The translations under genes and the position numbers were made by a program. 64,000 bases of DNA from Candidatus Gastranaerophilales bacterium (lineage in GTDB: Bacteria > Cyanobacteriota > Vampirovibrionia > Gastranaerophilales > Gastranaerophilaceae), in the NCBI GenBank assembly GCA_928722015.1, contig CAKMWI010000008.1, forward strand, positions 212,837-276,836, written 5' to 3'. The notes under the pieces are model-generated. The model saw only the letters and a list, made by a program, of their open reading frames with translations, did no database searches and had not been told where the DNA came from. Below, piece by piece: positions 11,437-28,598 of this stretch. How positions within the stretch are numbered: position 1 is the first letter of the stretch; the number at the start of each line of letters is the position of its first letter.

Positions 11437-13086
11437 TTATGATAACAAAGATTTTGCAAATTCAATTGACTGTTCATTAATTTCTCCTCCTGCTAATTCT
11501 GCAAGAGCTTTAATTTTGTTATCACCATTTAAAACGTAGACTTCAACTTTTGTTTCATCTTCTTGTGATTTTCTTACGTAAAAATGTTTGTCTGATTTTG
11601 AGGCTATTATTGCTTGGTGTGTTATGACAATTACTTGGTGAGATTTACTTAATTCAACAATCTCATCGGCTACACTTTGGGAAGCTTTTCCTGATATTCC
11701 GGTGTCGATTTCATCAAAAATTACAGTGTCAATATCGTCATTTTGTGCGAATATTGATTTTATTGCAAGCATAACTCTTGAAATTTCTCCTCCGGATGCA
11801 ACTTTTGCCAGTGGTTTTAAGGACTCTGATACATTTGTAGATATCATAAATTCAACATTATCAATTCCATTTTGAGATAGTTCTTTAGGTTTTATTTGGA
11901 TTTCAAACTTTGCTTTTGGTAATTCAAGTGCTGCAAGTTTATCTTGAATCAGGACAGATAGTACTTGTGCATAATTTTGTCTGCTTTCACTTATTTGTTT
12001 TCCTAATTTTAAAAGTTCTTGTTCTGATATTTTAATTTCGTTTTCCAATGTTTCAATATTTTTTGTTGAATATTCTATATTTGCAAGTTCTTCTGAATAT
12101 TCGTTATAATTTTGAAGTACAGCTTCTAGCGAACCGCCATATTTTCTTTTTAATTTATCCAAAATGAACAGTCTTTCTTGTATTTGATCAAGTCGTTGTG
12201 TATCATTATCAAGGGATTGACTGTAATTCCTCAATTCTGATGATATATCTTTAAGATTCTCGAATACGTCAATAAATTGTTGATTAATTCCTTCCAGTTT
12301 ATCATCGTAACTGCTAGCTTTTGAAATATCATTTTTAATTTTTGACATAGCTTCTAATATTGAACCGTCATCACCATTTATTGCCCAGTAGGATGCACCT
12401 GTTAATTCTTTTAATTTTTCGGCATTTTCAAGAATTTCAAGTTCCTGCTCGAGTTCTGTATCTTCGGTTGAACTTTTTATTTCTGCAGATTCGATTTCAT
12501 TTATTTGAAATTTTAAGAATTCAATTTGTGATTCTGTTGCATTTGTATTATTTTTTGCAAGTTCAAGCTTTTTTTGTAGTTCTTCATATTCTTTATAGAT
12601 ATTTTTATATTGTTGTAGCGTTTTGCCATAGTCGTCTTTACCGTATGAATCAAGAAGATTTATGTGGTATTGCGGTTGTAAAAAAGTGTATGTTTGATGT
12701 TGAGAATGGATATCAACAAATAAGGTTCTTAAGTTTTTCAAAAGTTCTTGATTAACTAATGTTCCGTTTATTCTTGATTTTACAGCGCTTTGGGTGATTT
12801 CTTTAGTTATTACGACTTCTGAGCCAAGATTATCAATTCCGTTGTCTGCAAATAATTGAGAAAGATTATGTTTTGTATTCTCAAGTGTAATTTCAATTAC
12901 AGCTTTATCACATCCTGTTTTTATAACATCTTTTGATACTCTTGATGAAAATACAAGGTCTATGGCATTTAAAAGTATACTTTTCCCTGCGCCAGTTTCA
13001 CCGGTAATAATATTAAGTTTATTATCGAATGTAGCGCACAGTTCATCTATTAAAATATAATCTTTTAGTCTTAACTGTTTAATCAT
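11437..13086 (-). CDS. recN: DNA repair protein RecN
   Basis: N-terminus MIKQLRLKDYILIDELCATFDNKLNIITGETGAGKSILLNAIDLVFS (Walker A). Central coiled coil. The C-terminal ABC signature region is typical of RecN. Length 549 aa. Confidence 0.9.
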   Translation of the reverse strand: MIKQLRLKDYILIDELCATFDNKLNIITGETGAGKSILLNAIDLVFSSRVSKDVIKTGCDKAVIEITLENTKHNLSQLFADNGIDNLGSEVVITKEITQSAVKSRINGTLVNQELLKNLRTLFVDIHSQHQTYTFLQPQYHINLLDSYGKDDYGKTLQQYKNIYKEYEELQKKLELAKNNTNATESQIEFLKFQINEIESAEIKSSTEDTELEQELEILENAEKLKELTGASYWAINGDDGSILEAMSKIKNDISKASSYDDKLEGINQQFIDVFENLKDISSELRNYSQSLDNDTQRLDQIQERLFILDKLKRKYGGSLEAVLQNYNEYSEELANIEYSTKNIETLENEIKISEQELLKLGKQISESRQNYAQVLSVLIQDKLAALELPKAKFEIQIKPKELSQNGIDNVEFMISTNVSESLKPLAKVASGGEISRVMLAIKSIFAQNDDIDTVIFDEIDTGISGKASQSVADEIVELSKSHQVIVITHQAIIASKSDKHFYVRKSQEDETKVEVYVLNGDNKIKALAELAGGEINEQSIEFAKSLLS

Positions 13087-18536: not shown

Positions 18537-19118
18537 ATGGGTTTCTTATTAGGCGCATTTGGAAAATTGGCTGCCGGCAGTCGAGTCAGATCACTGCAAG
18601 CAAAAATGATGCGTATTCAATCTAGATTGAGACGCGCCACCCGCGATGCTGCCGATATGGAAAAAATGATAAATAGACAAGAAAAAGCTGCATTAAACAG
18701 CTTAACTTGTCAATCATCCATGGCTATGAATATGGCTAAACAGGGATTGATGAGTTCTATCTTTGGTTCTGGTACTGCGGCTGCTTTAATGGCCAAGGTT
18801 AATAGTGGTACACAATTGACAACTGATGAAAATACTTCTTATCAAAACTTGATGACTCAATTTAATCAAATGTCAACTAATATGTCTGCAACTTGTGAAA
18901 CTTCAGCTGCAATGCAAAAGCAGCAAATTCAAGATTACTTCGAGCAGATGAGAGAATTGCAACTCGAACCGTTAAAAGACGAAGAAGAATTGTTGCAATC
19001 AGAAAAAGATTCTTTGGAATCTCAAATCCAGGTTGCTCAAGCAGATTACGAAGCTTGCAAGAAAATGGAACAAGCAGATGCAAAGAATTTGGCACCAAGC
19101 TACACAGGAGCAGCTTAA
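18537..19118 (+). CDS. Hypothetical coiled-coil/Gln-Met-rich protein
   Basis: 193 aa with an RBS AAGGA 10 nt upstream. The N-terminus MGFLLGAFGKLAAGSRVRSLQAKMMRIQSRL shares a short motif with the 26547 ORF. Confidence 0.5.
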   Translation: MGFLLGAFGKLAAGSRVRSLQAKMMRIQSRLRRATRDAADMEKMINRQEKAALNSLTCQSSMAMNMAKQGLMSSIFGSGTAAALMAKVNSGTQLTTDENTSYQNLMTQFNQMSTNMSATCETSAAMQKQQIQDYFEQMRELQLEPLKDEEELLQSEKDSLESQIQVAQADYEACKKMEQADAKNLAPSYTGAA

Positions 19119-19251: not shown

Positions 19252-20316
19252 ATGGAAAATTTGAGTTTAAATGAGAAGATTAACGAATTAGTCGTTAAGA
19301 TGGCTAAAGAGCCGGATAATATTGAAAATTATCATCACTTATCAGAATTGTATTTGCAGCAGCAGGATTATGATAAGGTTATGTCTGTATTGGACAGCCT
19401 GTTAGCAATAAAACCTGATGATGTGCAAGCATTGGTAGGTATGGGAACAATGTGGTTTTATGAACGTGATTTTAGGAAGTCATTGTCTTATTATAATAAG
19501 GCTCTTGAAATAAATCCTAAAAACTTTTTGATATATTACAATATTGGTAATGTATTTGCGGAGTGGAAAAATTTTTCTAAGGCATTGTTTTATTATAACC
19601 GTGCTATTGATTTAAATTCTGAAAACCCTGAAATTTATAATGCAATTGCACTCTTATATCAAGACATAGAGGATTATGTTGAAGCTAAGGCCTATTATGA
19701 GAAGGCTTTATCGTTGGATCCAGAAAATGTAAATGCTCTTATTGATATGGGGAATGTTTGCTTTAAGCTTTTTGATTATGAGACTGCTCTAAAACTTTTT
19801 AAGAAGGTTTTTGTTCTTAATCCTGATAATGAGCTTATTGCTGTTTGTATAGCAAATGCTCTTACTTTAATGAAAGAAAGAGAACAAGCTTATTCATACT
19901 ATGAAAAAGCCCTTTCTATGACTGATGATAAATACCGGATTTATATTTGTTATGCCATATCGTTAACTGAATTTAAAGAGTTTGATATGGCTGAAGAAAT
20001 GTTCAAACGTGCTATTGAATTTGATTCGAAAAAATCAAATGCTTATGTTCTCTTAGCTAATTTATATTCAAATTCTGATAGAATTAAAGAAGCTATTGAT
20101 TTATACAGAAAAGCTCTGCAGGTTGAACCTAATAATCCTGAAACTTATACGTTGCTTGGAAATGCTCATTTCTTGGATAATGATATAGAACAGGCAATTT
20201 CTTCTTATCGTGCGTCAATAAGCCTTGCTCCTGATAATGATGAATACAGACTTATTTATAGTCAGGTAATGGAAGATTATGTATCATCAGTTCGTGGAGT
20301 AGGTAATGATGCGTAA
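19252..20316 (+). CDS. Tetratricopeptide repeat (TPR) protein
   Basis: There are more than 8 consecutive 34-aa TPR units with the W/Y..A...Y..AL...P pattern. Confidence 0.8.
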   Translation: MENLSLNEKINELVVKMAKEPDNIENYHHLSELYLQQQDYDKVMSVLDSLLAIKPDDVQALVGMGTMWFYERDFRKSLSYYNKALEINPKNFLIYYNIGNVFAEWKNFSKALFYYNRAIDLNSENPEIYNAIALLYQDIEDYVEAKAYYEKALSLDPENVNALIDMGNVCFKLFDYETALKLFKKVFVLNPDNELIAVCIANALTLMKEREQAYSYYEKALSMTDDKYRIYICYAISLTEFKEFDMAEEMFKRAIEFDSKKSNAYVLLANLYSNSDRIKEAIDLYRKALQVEPNNPETYTLLGNAHFLDNDIEQAISSYRASISLAPDNDEYRLIYSQVMEDYVSSVRGVGNDA

Positions 20317-20716
20317 CTATCACACCCCTGTAGTTTCTGATAGAATAGTTTCTTTTTTGAGCTATATTACTGCCGGGTGGGCTGGTTTAATTTTTTGTGT
20401 AATTTTGTATTTTCGAAAAAAATTACCTTCCAGATTTTTAAGATTTAATGTGTTTCAGTCTATATTTATATCATTATTGTATTTTATTTTATGTATGGTG
20501 TTAGGCTTTATATTTGATTTACTTTTACATGTCCCATTTATAAATTATCTTGTATCGCAAATTTTATTAATTTTTAACAGACCTGTTTTTTATGATTATT
20601 CTATTATACAAATTTTTATGATTGGATTATTCTTGTATATGGCTTTGTTCTCGTTATTCGGAAGATATCCAAGAATTTATAAAATTTCGTCAATAATAGA
20701 TCATGCTGCAGGCTAG
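20306..20716 (+). CDS. Small polytopic membrane protein, function unknown
   Basis: 136 aa with four hydrophobic segments. It overlaps the TPR gene stop by 11 nt, suggesting translational coupling. Confidence 0.45.
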   Translation: MMRNYHTPVVSDRIVSFLSYITAGWAGLIFCVILYFRKKLPSRFLRFNVFQSIFISLLYFILCMVLGFIFDLLLHVPFINYLVSQILLIFNRPVFYDYSIIQIFMIGLFLYMALFSLFGRYPRIYKISSIIDHAAG

Positions 20717-21838: not shown

Positions 21839-21882
21839 AACGGCACTTGGATACAGGTGCCGTTATTCTTTTCTAATTTTTT
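21839..21882. terminator. Bidirectional intrinsic terminator after rpsG; overlaps the stop codon of the convergent hcp-like gene
   Basis: The stem AACGGCAC / GTGCCGTT has a 10-nt loop. It is followed by ATTCTTTTCTAATTTTTT. Confidence 0.7.
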
Positions 21883-23473
21883 CTAAATCATTATGTGGTG
21901 TATCTGTTAAATTTATGCTGTATTCGTTTCTAAATGTATCAAATACTGAAGGATTTACAAGCATCGGAGGACAGGTTGCCATATAAATATTCTTTGCTTT
22001 TACGTGTTTCAGCATAACAATATTAGAAATTGTCATAACATCACAAGTGGTAAAGAAGAATACTATTTTATTACTGTCAATCTCGTATTTTTCAAATATT
22101 TGGTGGATTATATTTATCGCGAGAGGATTATAATTTCCAATATTAATTGTCAAAACATTATCTTTTTTACTTTCAAATGAAAAGCTTAAGGCAAATTCTT
22201 CTGGTTTTAATAAAGAAAAGAATTCTTTAAAATATTCTTTTTGGATTTCTGAGTATGGATTCATACCTATAATGTATAGTTTTTTGATTTCATTTTTTTT
22301 CAGGCGTTCTGTTAATTTATTTATTTCATTATTTAATTCGTCTTCATTATAACCGAGAGGTGTATCATCCTTTATTTTTCCCTTAGTGAATCCTTTTGCC
22401 TTTTCTGCGCTTTCAATGAGTTCTGAATAGTTTTCATTTTCAATTTTTACAACCCCTTGATGTATTATGTAATCATTTGAAAATAACCTTCCCCTGTATA
22501 AATATTCAGTATTACTTCTGGAATTTTTAGTTAATAGTATTGAACCTGGAAATGTTGCAAAGTCCAGTATACAGCTTTCTGTTGTATCCCCGTAGTGTCC
22601 TCGCAGGTTCGGATATTGTTGGAATTCTTTTAGCGCATGGACTATTAATAAGTTGGAGTGAGTGTATACATCTATATTTTTGTCTTTTGTTTCGTTTAGT
22701 ATATTTAGTAAATCTGCAAAGTTATTTCCCGATACAAGAATTGCTTTACCTTTTCTTGTAGAATGAGATACGTTGACTTTTGAAATCCCTCCAAATTTTT
22801 TTAATAAAAGTTCACTTATTTCAAACTGGAGTTTGTTATCTATTTCTGCAAGTTCTGATATACTGTCTTTAATTTGCTTGTTACTTACTTTTCCATGATT
22901 AAACATATCAAGTATGGTTAATATTTTTTGATAAACATTGTCATCAAAATCTTTGAATTCGTTTAATTTTATCAGATTCATGGATGCACTTTTCAGGAGA
23001 ATTTGTAAAATTGAAATAAGATTTTTTTGGCCGGAAGTTAATTTATTATATTTTTCTAAAAATAATTTTTCTCCTTGGGCTATTGCTTTTGATACAGTTG
23101 TATTTTCATTAAATTCCAATTGGTTTTTTAAATCTTTAGCGAATATTCCTTTTTGAGTGCAAATTTCATGATACGCTTTTTTTGCTTCAGTATATAGTTG
23201 ATAATCTTTTGCAAGTATTGCATACAATTGTTTTTCACTAAATTCATTTATTGAGACTAAACTGGCTAAATCATTGATAATCTCATATTTTATTGAAACG
23301 TTATTAGCTCCTAACTTTTCGAGTTTTATGATATAATAAGCAAGTTGTTTTATAAAATAAATTATTATTACTTGAAGCGAGGCGATATTAGGAGCGATAG
23401 AACATGCTCCTCTGGAGGTACATTCATTTGTATCTATATAAGTATTTTTAAATTCATTATAATTATTATACAT
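21863..23473 (-). CDS. Hybrid-cluster protein (Hcp/prismane)-like protein, divergent; several canonical Cys ligands absent
   Basis: The N-terminus ...NECTSRGACSIAPNIASLQVIIIYFIKQLA resembles the Hcp N-terminal cluster region but lacks the first CxxC. RGHYGDTTESCILDFATFPGSILLTKNS resembles the Hcp GNYGxAWxxQxxEFxxFPGxILMTTNC motif, with Ser in place of the terminal Cys. Confidence 0.5.
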   Translation of the reverse strand: MYNNYNEFKNTYIDTNECTSRGACSIAPNIASLQVIIIYFIKQLAYYIIKLEKLGANNVSIKYEIINDLASLVSINEFSEKQLYAILAKDYQLYTEAKKAYHEICTQKGIFAKDLKNQLEFNENTTVSKAIAQGEKLFLEKYNKLTSGQKNLISILQILLKSASMNLIKLNEFKDFDDNVYQKILTILDMFNHGKVSNKQIKDSISELAEIDNKLQFEISELLLKKFGGISKVNVSHSTRKGKAILVSGNNFADLLNILNETKDKNIDVYTHSNLLIVHALKEFQQYPNLRGHYGDTTESCILDFATFPGSILLTKNSRSNTEYLYRGRLFSNDYIIHQGVVKIENENYSELIESAEKAKGFTKGKIKDDTPLGYNEDELNNEINKLTERLKKNEIKKLYIIGMNPYSEIQKEYFKEFFSLLKPEEFALSFSFESKKDNVLTINIGNYNPLAINIIHQIFEKYEIDSNKIVFFFTTCDVMTISNIVMLKHVKAKNIYMATCPPMLVNPSVFDTFRNEYSINLTDTPHNDLEKIRKE

Positions 23474-23714
23474 GGCTGTCCCTGCTTATATTTTTTTCTA
23501 CATATTCAATAATTTTGTCTGAATCATATATTTTATCATTCGTATCTTCATTATATAAAAATGGAACCTGATCAATTCCTCCAATTGATAGAAGTCTTAA
23601 TACATTATCATTGTTGCTGGTATCAAATTTGTGATATTTAATATTATGCTCTTTCATATATTTCATGACTTTTTGACAATAAGGACATGTGTCCAGTGTA
23701 TATAAATCAATCAT
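23466..23714 (-). CDS. Glutaredoxin (CPYC active site)
   Basis: 82 aa, MIDLYTLDTCPYCQKVMKYMKEHNIKY... with a glutaredoxin-like fold. Its stop overlaps the start of the hcp-like gene, so the two are co-transcribed. Confidence 0.8.
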   Translation of the reverse strand: MIDLYTLDTCPYCQKVMKYMKEHNIKYHKFDTSNNDNVLRLLSIGGIDQVPFLYNEDTNDKIYDSDKIIEYVEKNISRDSHV

Positions 23715-23837
23715 TGTTCCCTCCTTCTTTGAGCTAATTATAAAATATTATTGGGATAATAAATTAGCTATTTGATTAGTCTTTATATTTAATTATTTGT
23801 TGTTGCAAAACTTAAGTGTTTATACTAAACTGTGCCT

Positions 23838-25055: not shown

Positions 25056-25703
25056 CTATCTGATGATTGATGTTAATCTTTCATCAATTTTTCTGTCAAT
25101 CTTTTTAAGCATTCTTCTCATTCGCATGTCTTTATGAGAGTTTATGCTAGGATTTGATAGAATTTCATTTCTATATTGTTTATATAATTCAATTTCTCTA
25201 TCTTTTATGTCTTTTTTAATCAAAATTTTGTTATCTTCTTCTGAAATATCTTTTGAAACTTTGAAAATTACAGCAAATAGTGCAAGAACAAAGATAATCC
25301 ACAATGTTTTCTCTAGTGGTACGGTTTCTCCCACAATTGCGGCTTCACCATTACTTGGTTCCATTATTATTGTTGAATCATTGATATTGTCAGCTGTTAT
25401 ATATATATTTAGTTTATTTGGTGCTATATTTTCAACAACCAAACTATCAATGTTATTAGTTCCTTTATATAATGCATTTACTGTATCTGAAGAGGTAATT
25501 CCACTTAATTCAAGAACCATTTCACGTTCTGACGGTGATTTTTTAATTACTTTTGCCATCTTATCTGAGCCAAGTATAATATTATATCCTGTGTTATTTC
25601 TTTCTAAAGTTATTGTGTGCAGATAATTGCTGTTAGCAAAAGCTGCTACTGATGTTAATGCAAATGTAATTAAGAATCCGAATATCAAAAATAGTTTTTT
25701 CAA
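25056..25703 (-). CDS. Secreted/membrane protein with AMIN-like N-terminal domain and single TM, function unknown
   Basis: Signal peptide MKKLFLIFGFLITFALTSVAAFA. The segment HTITLERNNTGYNIILGSD...NKLNIYI resembles an AMIN domain. There is a TM at ~aa 140-160, then a charged cytoplasmic tail. Confidence 0.45.
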   Translation of the reverse strand: MKKLFLIFGFLITFALTSVAAFANSNYLHTITLERNNTGYNIILGSDKMAKVIKKSPSEREMVLELSGITSSDTVNALYKGTNNIDSLVVENIAPNKLNIYITADNINDSTIIMEPSNGEAAIVGETVPLEKTLWIIFVLALFAVIFKVSKDISEEDNKILIKKDIKDREIELYKQYRNEILSNPSINSHKDMRMRRMLKKIDRKIDERLTSIIR

Positions 25704-25983: not shown

Positions 25984-26355
25984 ATGATACTATTATTCAA
26001 TTCAAAGGCTTCAAAATCATCAACAACTAATAAAAACTCAAATGTTAAAAATCATCCTGTTGAAAACTCAGGTATTTTAGCAATGAGTTTAAGTGATGCG
26101 AAAAGCACTTTGACAATGGGTGAGTATGATTCTTATATATCTTCTAATCCGGTTGCAATAAATTATGCAGCTTATTCAAACTCAGCTGATTATTCTTCAG
26201 ATAGTGATTATTCTGGATTTATGGGTTCTTTTTCTTCTGCAATTGCAACTTTAGGTGATAGCGGAATGGCATCAGCTTCATTTGGTGGAGCAGCTTTCTC
26301 AGGAGCTTCTTCATTCTCTTGTTCTTCAAGTTCTTCATTTAGTTCAGTTGGTTAA
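25984..26355 (+). CDS. Ser/Ala/Gly-rich low-complexity small protein, function unknown
   Basis: 123-aa ORF with a good RBS (AGGAGA, 5 nt spacer). The C-terminus is ...ASFGGAAFSGASSFSCSSSSSFSSVG. Confidence 0.4.
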   Translation: MILLFNSKASKSSTTNKNSNVKNHPVENSGILAMSLSDAKSTLTMGEYDSYISSNPVAINYAAYSNSADYSSDSDYSGFMGSFSSAIATLGDSGMASASFGGAAFSGASSFSCSSSSSFSSVG

Positions 26356-26546: not shown

Positions 26547-28598
26547 ATGGGAATGGCGGCATCACAAGCCAGATTATTATCGATAACAGCTCGTTTAGCT
26601 GATAACGAGTTGAGATCACAAACGATTAATAATGCTAAAATGCGCTTGGCTACTCAAAGTTCTCAAGCTAGTGAAAGTTATATTAGCGCATTAAATGATG
26701 CTAATTTAATGTTTTCAAATTATGATGCTGAAGGAAATTCTCAATCTCAGTTGTTAACTTATAATGCTTTAACTGCTTACAGTTCATATAATAACCAATA
26801 TGGTCTTGTAAATTCATCAGGGCAACTTTTGGTTAGTGAATCTGAAGCTGATTTATTCGAAAAATCTAACGGAAATTTAAACGCATATTTAAAATCACAT
26901 GGGTTAGAATATACAACTACATATTTTGATCAATTAGGTAATATGGTTAACGAAGGTTATCCTGTACCATTCGATGTTATTAGTCCTGAAACTTTAAGAG
27001 AAATGTACGAAGCTTATGGCAGTTATGAAAATTCATTAGAAACTGATAAGTTTGAAAAATTTTACAAAGATTATGTTGATGCAGATAATGCATTAAAAGT
27101 TGGTTCAAAAGAAATTATGGAAAGTTATTTATTATCAAACAATAACTCTCCAAAAATTTCTAAAGATTCAACTAATCTTATATCTATTGATATTTTAGGA
27201 AATGCTCAAGAATTGGCTCAAAAGTTTAAGAATGCATTTACAAATTCAAATAATACATATAGTATTCCGAATTTGAAAAATATGGGACTTACTGATGAGG
27301 GTGCTACTGCAATTCAAGAAATGTTGGATTCTGTAAGTTTTGAAAGTTCATCAGTAGGTAAGATTGAAGAATCTCTTCCTGGAGTTTATACAAGAGGTGA
27401 TGATGGTTCTGAAACTATTGTGATTACCGACGATGCTACAGGCGTTGAAATTACTTTTACAAAAGATGCCAGCGGTACTATTACAGTTACAGGCAATCCT
27501 GAATTATCATATACTGACACTGAAAATCCTGAAGACAACTATAATTATACTTATACAATAGGTTCAACGCTTTTGGATACTGTGAATTCTTTAAAATATG
27601 ACTCAGTTGAAGATAAGCATAGCTTTAATGTTAGTTTGGATGCAGACGGCACTGTTGATGCAAAATCAGTATATAAATATAATTTATCTCCATCAAGCGG
27701 TGATGAAATTGGTTTTAAGCAGGCTCTTGATGAACTTGCAGAATCAATTTTGGATGCAATTCGTACTACAGAAGAATACTTCAACTATGGTGCATTTGCA
27801 GATAAATTACTTGAATGGAGAGAAACCGGTACAGATTTAGCAGCTAAAGGTATTGATATTAATAAAGTTTTAAAATCTGGTAAGACTTATACTGAAGTTT
27901 TAGATGAATATAAAACTATAAAAGATGCTTATTTAGGTTTTATTGAAGTTGGTTATAAACCGTCAATTTTGGAAAAATCTCCATTAGAACAACTTATTGA
28001 AGATGGTAAACTTACAACAAAGGATTTATTAGATACTGATAAACTTCTTAAAATTCTTGCTGAAAATAATATTGCTTTTACAAATGAATATAAAACAGTT
28101 ATTCAAGAGTTCATTGTGGAATCTATGATAGAAGAATATGGTGAACCTAAGTATGCCTGGGTTGACGAAAATGATACTGCTAATACCGGAAATGCTGATG
28201 CAAAAGCTCAGTGGTATACTAATATGTTTAATAGAATGAAACAAGGGTATAAAATTATTGAAAATGGTCTTGCCTCTTCTTCTGAATGGCTTGAATTTGC
28301 TTTAGAAAGTGGTCTTGTAACTATGGAACAAGTTGATAAATCCTTTAACTGGAAATCTTTGGATTATAAAACTTGTAGTAATATTACCGAAGAAACTGAT
28401 AACAGTGAGCTTGTTGCAAAGGCTGAAGCAGAATATAACAGAGCAATGAAAGATATAGATGCCAAAGATAGTATCTATGATATGGAATTAAAAAATATTG
28501 ATACTGAACATACTGCATTGCAAACTGAATATGATTCAATAAAAAGTGTTATATCTAAGAATATTGAAAGAACCTTCAAATTTAATCAGAATGGCTAA
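26547..28598 (+). CDS. Large hypothetical protein (683 aa, acidic, no signal peptide)
   Basis: RBS GAAAGGA. N-terminus MGMAASQARLLSITARLADNELRSQTINNAKMRLATQSS. No recognisable catalytic motifs. Confidence 0.5.
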   Translation: MGMAASQARLLSITARLADNELRSQTINNAKMRLATQSSQASESYISALNDANLMFSNYDAEGNSQSQLLTYNALTAYSSYNNQYGLVNSSGQLLVSESEADLFEKSNGNLNAYLKSHGLEYTTTYFDQLGNMVNEGYPVPFDVISPETLREMYEAYGSYENSLETDKFEKFYKDYVDADNALKVGSKEIMESYLLSNNNSPKISKDSTNLISIDILGNAQELAQKFKNAFTNSNNTYSIPNLKNMGLTDEGATAIQEMLDSVSFESSSVGKIEESLPGVYTRGDDGSETIVITDDATGVEITFTKDASGTITVTGNPELSYTDTENPEDNYNYTYTIGSTLLDTVNSLKYDSVEDKHSFNVSLDADGTVDAKSVYKYNLSPSSGDEIGFKQALDELAESILDAIRTTEEYFNYGAFADKLLEWRETGTDLAAKGIDINKVLKSGKTYTEVLDEYKTIKDAYLGFIEVGYKPSILEKSPLEQLIEDGKLTTKDLLDTDKLLKILAENNIAFTNEYKTVIQEFIVESMIEEYGEPKYAWVDENDTANTGNADAKAQWYTNMFNRMKQGYKIIENGLASSSEWLEFALESGLVTMEQVDKSFNWKSLDYKTCSNITEETDNSELVAKAEAEYNRAMKDIDAKDSIYDMELKNIDTEHTALQTEYDSIKSVISKNIERTFKFNQNG

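Follow-up and report, generated by a model that had tools for sequence, protein, structure and literature searches.

On the minus strand of contig CAKMWI010000008.1 from a Candidatus Gastranaerophilales bacterium (assembly GCA_928722015.1), two overlapping open reading frames (ORFs) encode a stand-alone glutaredoxin (Grx) of 82 amino acids (grx, 23466-23714) and a protein of 536 amino acids, here called HcpL (hcpL, 21863-23473), which has kept the full fold of the hybrid-cluster protein (Hcp) and lost the ligands of its iron-sulfur (Fe-S) clusters. Coordinates are those of the window, i.e. the whole 64,000-nucleotide stretch of DNA that was analysed. We are confident of this descriptive account, i.e. 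a complete Hcp fold without cluster ligands, encoded in a conserved operon with grx. Judging from its sequence, HcpL probably works by thiol chemistry rather than Fe-S chemistry. Our preferred interpretation, to which we assign a probability of about 0.35-0.4, is that of a glutaredoxin-serviced dithiol/disulfide protein, whose N-terminal cysteine (Cys) pair would relay to a centre formed by C477 and C501.

Relatives of HcpL are encoded in 172 of the GTDB species genomes scanned. The locus comparisons reported below rest on the best 80 of these, among which 77 full-length orthologues served for the Cys counts.

Hcp homology and predicted fold

The Hcp-family blocks NECTSRGACS...LQ, GHYG and ILDFATFPGSILLTKNS can be seen in HcpL, and an earlier note on this DNA, made from the sequence alone, had described it on such grounds as a divergent Hcp-like protein. 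Profile searches placed this assignment far beyond chance: HcpL matched Pfam PF03063 with E=1.5e-24 (87 bits against a cutoff of 27), NCBIfam NF003658 with E=1e-52 and TIGR01703 with E=2e-49, and alignment of the HcpL family profile with a canonical Hcp profile using hhalign gave a probability of 100 and E=3.5e-52 over 520 columns. The scores against NF003658 and TIGR01703 (179.5 and 168.4 bits) are about half the curated equivalog cutoffs of these hydroxylamine reductase models (367 and 360.8, respectively), and HcpL is therefore not the Hcp enzyme; no curated family claims the HcpL proteins, the NCBIfam matches being below cutoff. The best PDB sequence matches were the Hcps of Escherichia coli and Methanothermococcus thermolithotrophicus, the E. 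coli structure 7DE4 ranking top (E=3.3e-24).

As proposed in the earlier note, a structure was predicted, using AlphaFold2 on 41 family members, and the resulting model is a confident Hcp fold (predicted local distance difference test score, pLDDT, 86.3; predicted template modelling score 0.86). Its top Foldseek matches were 1e1d, 8cnr, 1gn9 and 7de4, with template modelling (TM) scores of 0.76-0.78 over about 540 columns and 16-19 % identity; TM was about 0.6 with class III Hcp and about 0.48 with carbon monoxide dehydrogenase (CODH), at 9-12 % identity for the latter. The model consists of a helical domain 1 followed by two alpha/beta domains, a class-I-like layout that fits the domain limits of the class I protein MtHCP, i.e. 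1-222, 223-368 and 369-548 (PMC10210160). Confidence dips at residues 1-24 (pLDDT about 31) and around 290-335, i.e. in the two loops that formerly bound the clusters. By Pfam search, HcpL contains neither a DNA-binding nor a signalling domain. Membership of an unrelated family, named in the earlier note as a result that would overturn its proposal, was not borne out, Hcp homology and fold being secure.

Loss of the cluster ligands

Ligand positions were mapped on the E. coli Hcp taken from NC_000913, whose numbering is followed for the ligands, by MAFFT alignment of 116 and of about 100 sequences and by hhalign profile-profile comparison; the mappings agree. All seven hybrid-cluster ligand positions are replaced or deleted in HcpL: H249 corresponds to N250, E273 to N274, C317 to S318, C405 to N405 and E492 to D478; C433 falls on a gap or on F433 (Tyr in most relatives), and C458 lies in a gap within IGNYNP. 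Of the four cubane Cys, two have been lost too, C3 and C6 being absent and C18 and C25 corresponding to C18 and C24 of HcpL. The N-terminus reads MYNNYNEF..., without the first CxxC, and the CxxC positions are occupied by Asn, Tyr or Lys or fall in gaps in 116/116 relatives.

The earlier note had reported the missing first CxxC and a Ser where the Cys of TTNC would sit. Alignment to E. coli Hcp upheld the former, and the latter was recovered as Ser318 at the Cys of TSNC; the loss of ligands was nevertheless understated there, since it is total for the hybrid cluster. Over the 520 hhalign columns, six of the seven ligand positions hold no Cys, His or Glu, and no Cys was found within the motifs around the former ligand positions. 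Ex-ligand columns vary among orthologues (N/S/G/T, S/F/E/T or D/N/S) and the C433 column is Tyr in 61/77, which is consistent with a pocket that is no longer cluster-shaped. With the hybrid-cluster ligands all lost and two cubane Cys gone, HcpL cannot be a canonical Hcp, i.e. a nitric oxide (NO)/hydroxylamine reductase.

The 64-kb window and the flanks (+/-10 kb) of the 80 related loci showed no canonical or second Hcp-like gene. The word paralog, used in the earlier note, is unproven.

Distribution and phylogeny of the family

A word-indexed search with HcpL returned 403 homologues. The best 120 of them share 46-100 % identity, are nearly all about 535 amino acids long and are mostly unnamed or annotated as 'hypothetical'; NCBI names members of the family 'hypothetical protein', and JGI names some of them 'hydroxylamine reductase'. 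Among 41 sequences of 47-80 % identity, 44 columns are invariant. Identity within the same loci amounts to 40-71 % for hcpL, 75-87 % for the neighbouring wecB and 83-96 % for rpsG.

Almost all of the 80 loci are either unclassified or bear the labels Gastranaerophilales, Melainabacteria or Cyanobacteria, as do most of the close homologues that have a name. The grx-hcpL pair is a core feature of Gastranaerophilales, with hcpL intact and constrained across the order. Six contigs (L024, L031, L033, L036, L048 and L078) carry the labels Muribaculaceae, Methanomethylophilaceae archaeon, Acutalibacteraceae, Bacteroidaceae or Clostridium sp.; their wecB-grx-hcpL-rpsG-rpsL synteny is identical to that of Gastranaerophilales, so these are probably mis-binned or mislabelled contigs of public metagenome-assembled genomes (MAGs).

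An exhaustive search among representative sequences gave 709 clusters at E<1e-3; among these, the ligand-less pattern extends to 79 full-length representatives with identities as low as about 25 %. In a distance-based neighbor-joining tree, computed without bootstrap, these 79 form one clade that excludes the Hcps with full or partial ligand sets. The nearest canonical Hcps, at about 22 % identity, are from unrelated taxa (Phycisphaerae, Photobacterium and a eukaryote) and point to no donor lineage. Remote members of the clade come from DNA of 29-35 % GC, and one transporter encoded there is 60 % identical to a Gastranaerophilales protein; both are weak hints at an affiliation with Melainabacteria. 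Separately, nine sequences (P0209, P0217, P0229, P0236, P0238, P0241, P0242, P0245 and P0251) keep the four N-terminal Cys and have apparently lost some hybrid-cluster ligands; from their alignment they may represent further, partly degenerate Hcp lineages.

Conserved cysteines

HcpL has six Cys in total, at positions 18, 24, 105, 301, 477 and 501. All 77 orthologues have C18, C24, C477 and C501, and the first two are also invariant in 116/116 relatives. C18 and C24 (loop NECTSRGAC, 23402-23422, minus strand, codons checked) are what is retained of the former [4Fe-4S] motif, namely its third and fourth Cys, spaced as in class I. The codons of C477 and D478 lie at 22040-22045 and that of C501 at 21971-21973 (both minus strand), the residues being located by orthologue alignments, hhalign and the secondary structure of the model. 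By hhalign, C477/D478 align with F491-E492 of E. coli Hcp and C501 with T515 of the canonical GPT motif; D478 is kept in 70/77 orthologues. The remaining two Cys are less constant: orthologue counts gave C105 (domain 1; 23159-23161, minus strand) in 65/77 orthologues and in 82 % of the wider ligand-less clade, and C301 (22571-22573, minus strand) in 57/77, column mapping placing it at the canonical invariant Q300 of the WQxQ motif.

In domain 3 of the model, C477 stands three residues past the strand 470-474 and C501 three residues past the next strand, 496-498. The ex-ligand positions C405, C433 and D478 similarly stand three to four residues past the strands 398-402, 426-430 and 470-474. These shared strand-end positions imply, as far as the modelled strand topology goes, that C477/D478 and C501 very probably lie close together and line the old hybrid-cluster pocket.

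The joint presence and loss of these Cys was followed among the 79 representatives by Fisher tests, in which kinship was ignored. C18 and C24 were both kept in 66, both lost in 10 and discordant in 3 (p=2e-10); for C477 and C501 the counts were 61, 11 and 7, respectively (p=5e-8). Between the two pairs there was little or no association (p=0.047 and 0.68), the pattern --CCC occurring 6 times and CCC-- 7 times. This independent loss marks the pairs as two modules, and a single four-Cys site made of C18/C24 and C477/C501 is disfavoured. C105 showed no association with either pair (p=1) and was accordingly rejected as a third ligand to either of them.

The glutaredoxin partner

The 82-residue Grx is of the Grx2 N-terminal or GST_N type. 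In Pfam it matched GST_N_3 (E=9.4e-13, 48.8 bits against 22) and Glutaredoxin PF00462 (E=5.7e-9, 36.5 bits against 22.9), and it aligned with the Grx2 structure 7tbs (E=1.5e-4) through CPYC...QVPFL...ESD. Its motifs are the CPYC active site (residues 10-13, codons at 23676-23687, minus strand), the QVP cis-Pro element and (Y)DS/ES; in 80 orthologues, the active site is CPYC in 68, CPFC in 4 and CPYS in 5. The VP and ES elements of Grx2/GST_N proteins bind glutathione, and Grx carries motifs that resemble them. Its scores against the GrxB models TIGR02182 and NF007702 were 27.8 and 34.1 bits (cutoffs 186.65 and 133) and covered only positions 2-73 of 209-215; it is not a two-domain GrxB, a protein of about 215 amino acids.

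The stop codon of grx (TAA, 23466-23468) falls within the opening codons of hcpL, whose ATG is at 23471-23473. This bears out the overlap reported in the earlier note, which amounts to 8 nt (ATGTATAA), and the arrangement of the two genes indicates that they are a two-gene operon. In all 79 related loci with upstream DNA, grx lies directly upstream of hcpL on the same strand, with a spacing from a 35-bp overlap to a 16-bp gap. The order wecB-grx-hcpL persists at 37 % HcpL identity (P0143), though the downstream neighbour differs there. In one case (L048, contig CAVHEM010000026.1, about 9728-11570 in locus coordinates), grx and hcpL are fused in frame into a protein of 613 amino acids, so that about 20 residues separate the Grx domain from C18 downstream of it. 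From its sequence, this may be a natural Rosetta-stone fusion; as the contig comes from a MAG, the stop codon may instead have been lost to a sequencing error. No conserved functional partner besides Grx was found in the hcpL neighbourhoods.

Among the eight remote members of the clade that were looked up, hcpL is monocistronic or, in one case, tandemly duplicated. The latter locus (L089, 1385-4605) encodes two ligand-less Hcp-like paralogs that overlap by 4 bp, share 32 % identity and have no grx beside them; P0145 keeps C18/C24 and P0151 has lost them. Their tandem arrangement suggests that the two may form a heteromer.

A thiol relay and its alternatives

Under the interpretation that we prefer, the reactive centre of HcpL would be the buried C477/C501 pair in the old active-site pocket, where it would act on, or sense, some small substrate. 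The flexible C18/C24 pair would shuttle reducing equivalents to this centre and would itself be re-reduced by the co-translated Grx, drawing on glutathione or another cellular reductant. In other words, the Fe-S wire of Hcp (from cubane to hybrid cluster) would have been swapped for a dithiol relay running from Grx to C18/C24 and on to C477/C501. The presence of four invariant Cys as two independently evolving pairs at ex-cluster sites lends indirect support to the thiol-dependent idea. An earlier suggestion, namely that the protein handles NO or hydroxylamine through thiols in place of Fe-S clusters or else is a regulatory or scaffold derivative, thus stands in part: its description of the gene pair holds, and nothing in this analysis links HcpL to NO or hydroxylamine specifically. 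The further step, in which the prismane (Hcp/CODH) fold would have been converted to a metal-free, glutaredoxin-driven thiol enzyme serving a core function of gut Melainabacteria, appears to us somewhat doubtful; such an enzyme may, for example, reduce or detoxify some small oxidant.

Several observations weigh against a thiol relay. The adjacency of C477 and C501 is derived solely from strand topology, no substrate can be named for HcpL, and the Fisher tests on the Cys pairs ignore phylogenetic relatedness. The CTxxGxC loop resembles half of a cubane-binding motif and would fit a residual metal site. Finally, the eight remote clade members looked up (36 % identity or lower) have no adjacent grx, most of them keeping both Cys pairs, so the link to Grx is lineage-specific in gene order.

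The loop just mentioned bears on the alternative that HcpL has remained a metalloprotein whose metal site is rewired or reduced, Grx then delivering or repairing clusters or donating a ligand. The site could be a cluster, [2Fe-2S] or [4Fe-4S], that bridges two subunits through their C18/C24, in the manner of the CODH D-cluster, or is shared with Grx and glutathione; alternatively, it could be a mononuclear or small site built from C477, D478 and C501 in the old hybrid-cluster pocket. NECTSRGAC does match the second half of the canonical cubane motif, conserved Gly included, and C477, D478 and C501 have the same strand-end geometry as the lost ligands, the change from E492 to D478 being conservative and widely kept. 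Some glutaredoxins, moreover, co-ligate [2Fe-2S] clusters together with glutathione. Those that bind clusters have CGFS, CSYC or CGYC active sites, however, and CPYC glutaredoxins are not normally cluster ligands because of their Pro, which tells against this role for a Grx that is CPYC in most orthologues. Each site would have only two Cys to offer, the independent loss of the pairs leaving no four-Cys site, and the predominance of Tyr or Phe in the C433 and C458 columns suggests a filled cavity. Class I and II Hcps are monomers (PMC10210160), so a dimer-bridged cluster would need a new interface. On balance, we consider a surviving metal site rather improbable.

A non-catalytic pseudoenzyme, i.e. 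a scaffold, chaperone, regulator or redox sensor in which the Hcp fold is kept for binding a partner or ligand and the Cys pairs are only a redox switch or structural disulfides set by Grx, would readily accommodate a retained fold whose catalytic ligands are completely gone. The faster sequence turnover of hcpL compared with wecB and rpsG, the tolerance of the wider clade to loss of either Cys pair and the L089 paralogs, one of them without C18/C24, point the same way, the last being a pattern often seen in enzyme/pseudoenzyme heteromers. This explanation sits poorly, however, with the invariance of four Cys in every Grx-linked orthologue and with an operon coupling, once a fusion, so tight that it is typical of a redoxin and its dedicated client enzyme; HcpL also has no DNA-binding or signalling domain, and its neighbourhoods offer no conserved functional partner other than Grx. 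We therefore regard it as unlikely. Far less credible still is an ordinary hydroxylamine/NO reductase with its ligands conserved at shifted positions. The PF03063 match, the full-length Hcp fold and some JGI labels would suit it; inspection of the ligand columns in the MAFFT and hhalign mappings ruled it out, six of the seven ligand positions being without Cys, His or Glu in the profile alignment of a protein that has six Cys only, scores half the equivalog cutoffs and is called 'hypothetical protein' by NCBI. Equally remote is a decaying pseudogene or ORF-calling artefact beside a real glutaredoxin gene, as might be suspected from the loss of all catalytic residues in low-GC, AT-rich sequence. 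An intact, full-length ORF in 77 independent species-level genomes and in >116 protein clusters, with the invariant columns and the confident model described above, rules this out.

Locus layout and flanking genes

A strong Shine-Dalgarno sequence (AAGGAGG) was read 7 nt ahead of the grx ATG. The region 23715-23831 (minus strand), common to grx and the divergent wecB, is a candidate promoter/leader region only; a TATAAT-like box was read in it, and no promoter-like site was reported there by a consensus scan. Between the convergent rpsG and hcpL lies a GC-rich hairpin (21839-21864; AACGGCACTTGG ATAC AGGTGCCGTT) with an 11-bp stem, which overlaps the hcpL stop codon and is followed on the plus strand by a T-rich run. 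From these features it is likely a terminator and may be a bidirectional one.

The flanking genes encode a UDP-GlcNAc 2-epimerase (wecB, divergent), the rpsL-rpsG pair, a tetratricopeptide repeat (TPR) protein and a small membrane protein, in a window of 27-35 % GC. The neighbours (wecB, TPR, Tic20-like membrane protein, rpsL/rpsG and unassigned ORFs) gave no functional clue, and no NADH oxidoreductase gene (hcr) was found adjacent to hcpL. The membrane protein (20306-20716, plus strand) is a multi-pass protein of 136 amino acids with a weak Tic20-like Pfam match (E=0.006, below cutoff), and its ORF shares 11 nt with the end of the TPR gene (19252-20316). In most of the closer related loci, homologues of the two were detected near rpsL, which was not so in most of the more distant ones. 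The ORFs at 25056-25703 (minus), 25984-26355 (plus), 26547-28598 (plus) and 18537-19118 (plus) had no significant Pfam match. The N-terminus of the 215-amino-acid ORF resembles a signal anchor, and most related loci have a homologue of this ORF close to wecB; the 683-amino-acid ORF is large and acidic and starts with MGMAASQARLLSITARL.

Comparison with known systems

Gastranaerophilales are a common, uncultured lineage of strict anaerobes in human and animal guts, and debate over the physiological role of Hcp itself has lasted for decades. As a near-universal, unannotated gene of this order, hcpL probably has a function that bears on redox or nitrosative stress handling. The 'hydroxylamine reductase' labels on its products are wrong and would distort nitrogen-cycle gene inventories drawn from metagenomes. 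In full-text literature searches, we found no description of ligand-less Hcp homologues, of an Hcp-Grx pairing or of Hcp or Grx in Melainabacteria; recent structural and phylogenetic papers on Hcp describe classes I-III only, with ligands conserved.

HcpL shares with class I Hcp (Desulfovibrio vulgaris 1E2U/1E1D, M. thermolithotrophicus 8CNR) the full-length three-domain architecture, the C-x5-C spacing of the third and fourth N-terminal Cys and the motifs GKxILVSG, YTH, GxYG, FxxFPG and TxN. It differs from it by an identity of 16-19 % only, by the absence of the first CxxC and of the hybrid ligands (one Glu having become Asp), by new invariant Cys at the F491 and T515 columns and by its Grx partner. 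Like hcp in the class II Hcp-Hcr system (E. coli, 7DE4), hcpL stands in an operon with a dedicated redox partner. However, E. coli hcr lies directly downstream of hcp, and Hcr is an NADH oxidoreductase, a flavin/[2Fe-2S] protein, whereas the partner of HcpL is a small thiol oxidoreductase encoded upstream. In addition, the N-terminal Cys spacing of class II Hcp is x6 instead of x5, and HcpL is without its hybrid-cluster ligands.

For its part, Grx aligns through CPYC, QVPFL and ES/DS with the N-terminal domain of Grx2 (GST_N_3, E. coli GrxB type; 7tbs, 4kx4), whose C-terminal helical GST-like domain it lacks. Known redoxin-client systems and terminal Cys-pair shuttles include NrdH with NrdEF, the Cys pair at the C-terminus of class I ribonucleotide reductase and Grx-coupled ArsC. 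They offer parallels for a small redoxin gene co-transcribed with its client and for a flexible terminal Cys pair relaying to a buried pair, as proposed for HcpL; the folds are unrelated, and the likeness would be functional only.

All characterised Hcp and CODH proteins are, to our knowledge, cluster-based metalloenzymes. If HcpL is indeed a metal-free thiol enzyme, the Hcp/CODH superfamily would gain with it a first catalytic member that is not a metalloprotein. A monophyletic, order-wide family in which the fold is kept, the clusters are gone, new invariant Cys pairs have appeared and a glutaredoxin is attached shows what this scaffold is capable of without metals, and makes a clean test case for the repurposing of Fe-S enzymes. 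HcpL is itself no Ni,Fe-CODH (CooS), its ligand columns holding neither Cys nor His. A precedent within the superfamily for a conserved member without the canonical catalytic cluster is CODH-V of Carboxydothermus hydrogenoformans, which lacks both the C-cluster and CODH activity (PMC10502027). In CODH-V, Fe-S clusters are still bound and the dimeric CODH fold is present, whereas in HcpL the ligands of the catalytic cluster have been lost altogether.

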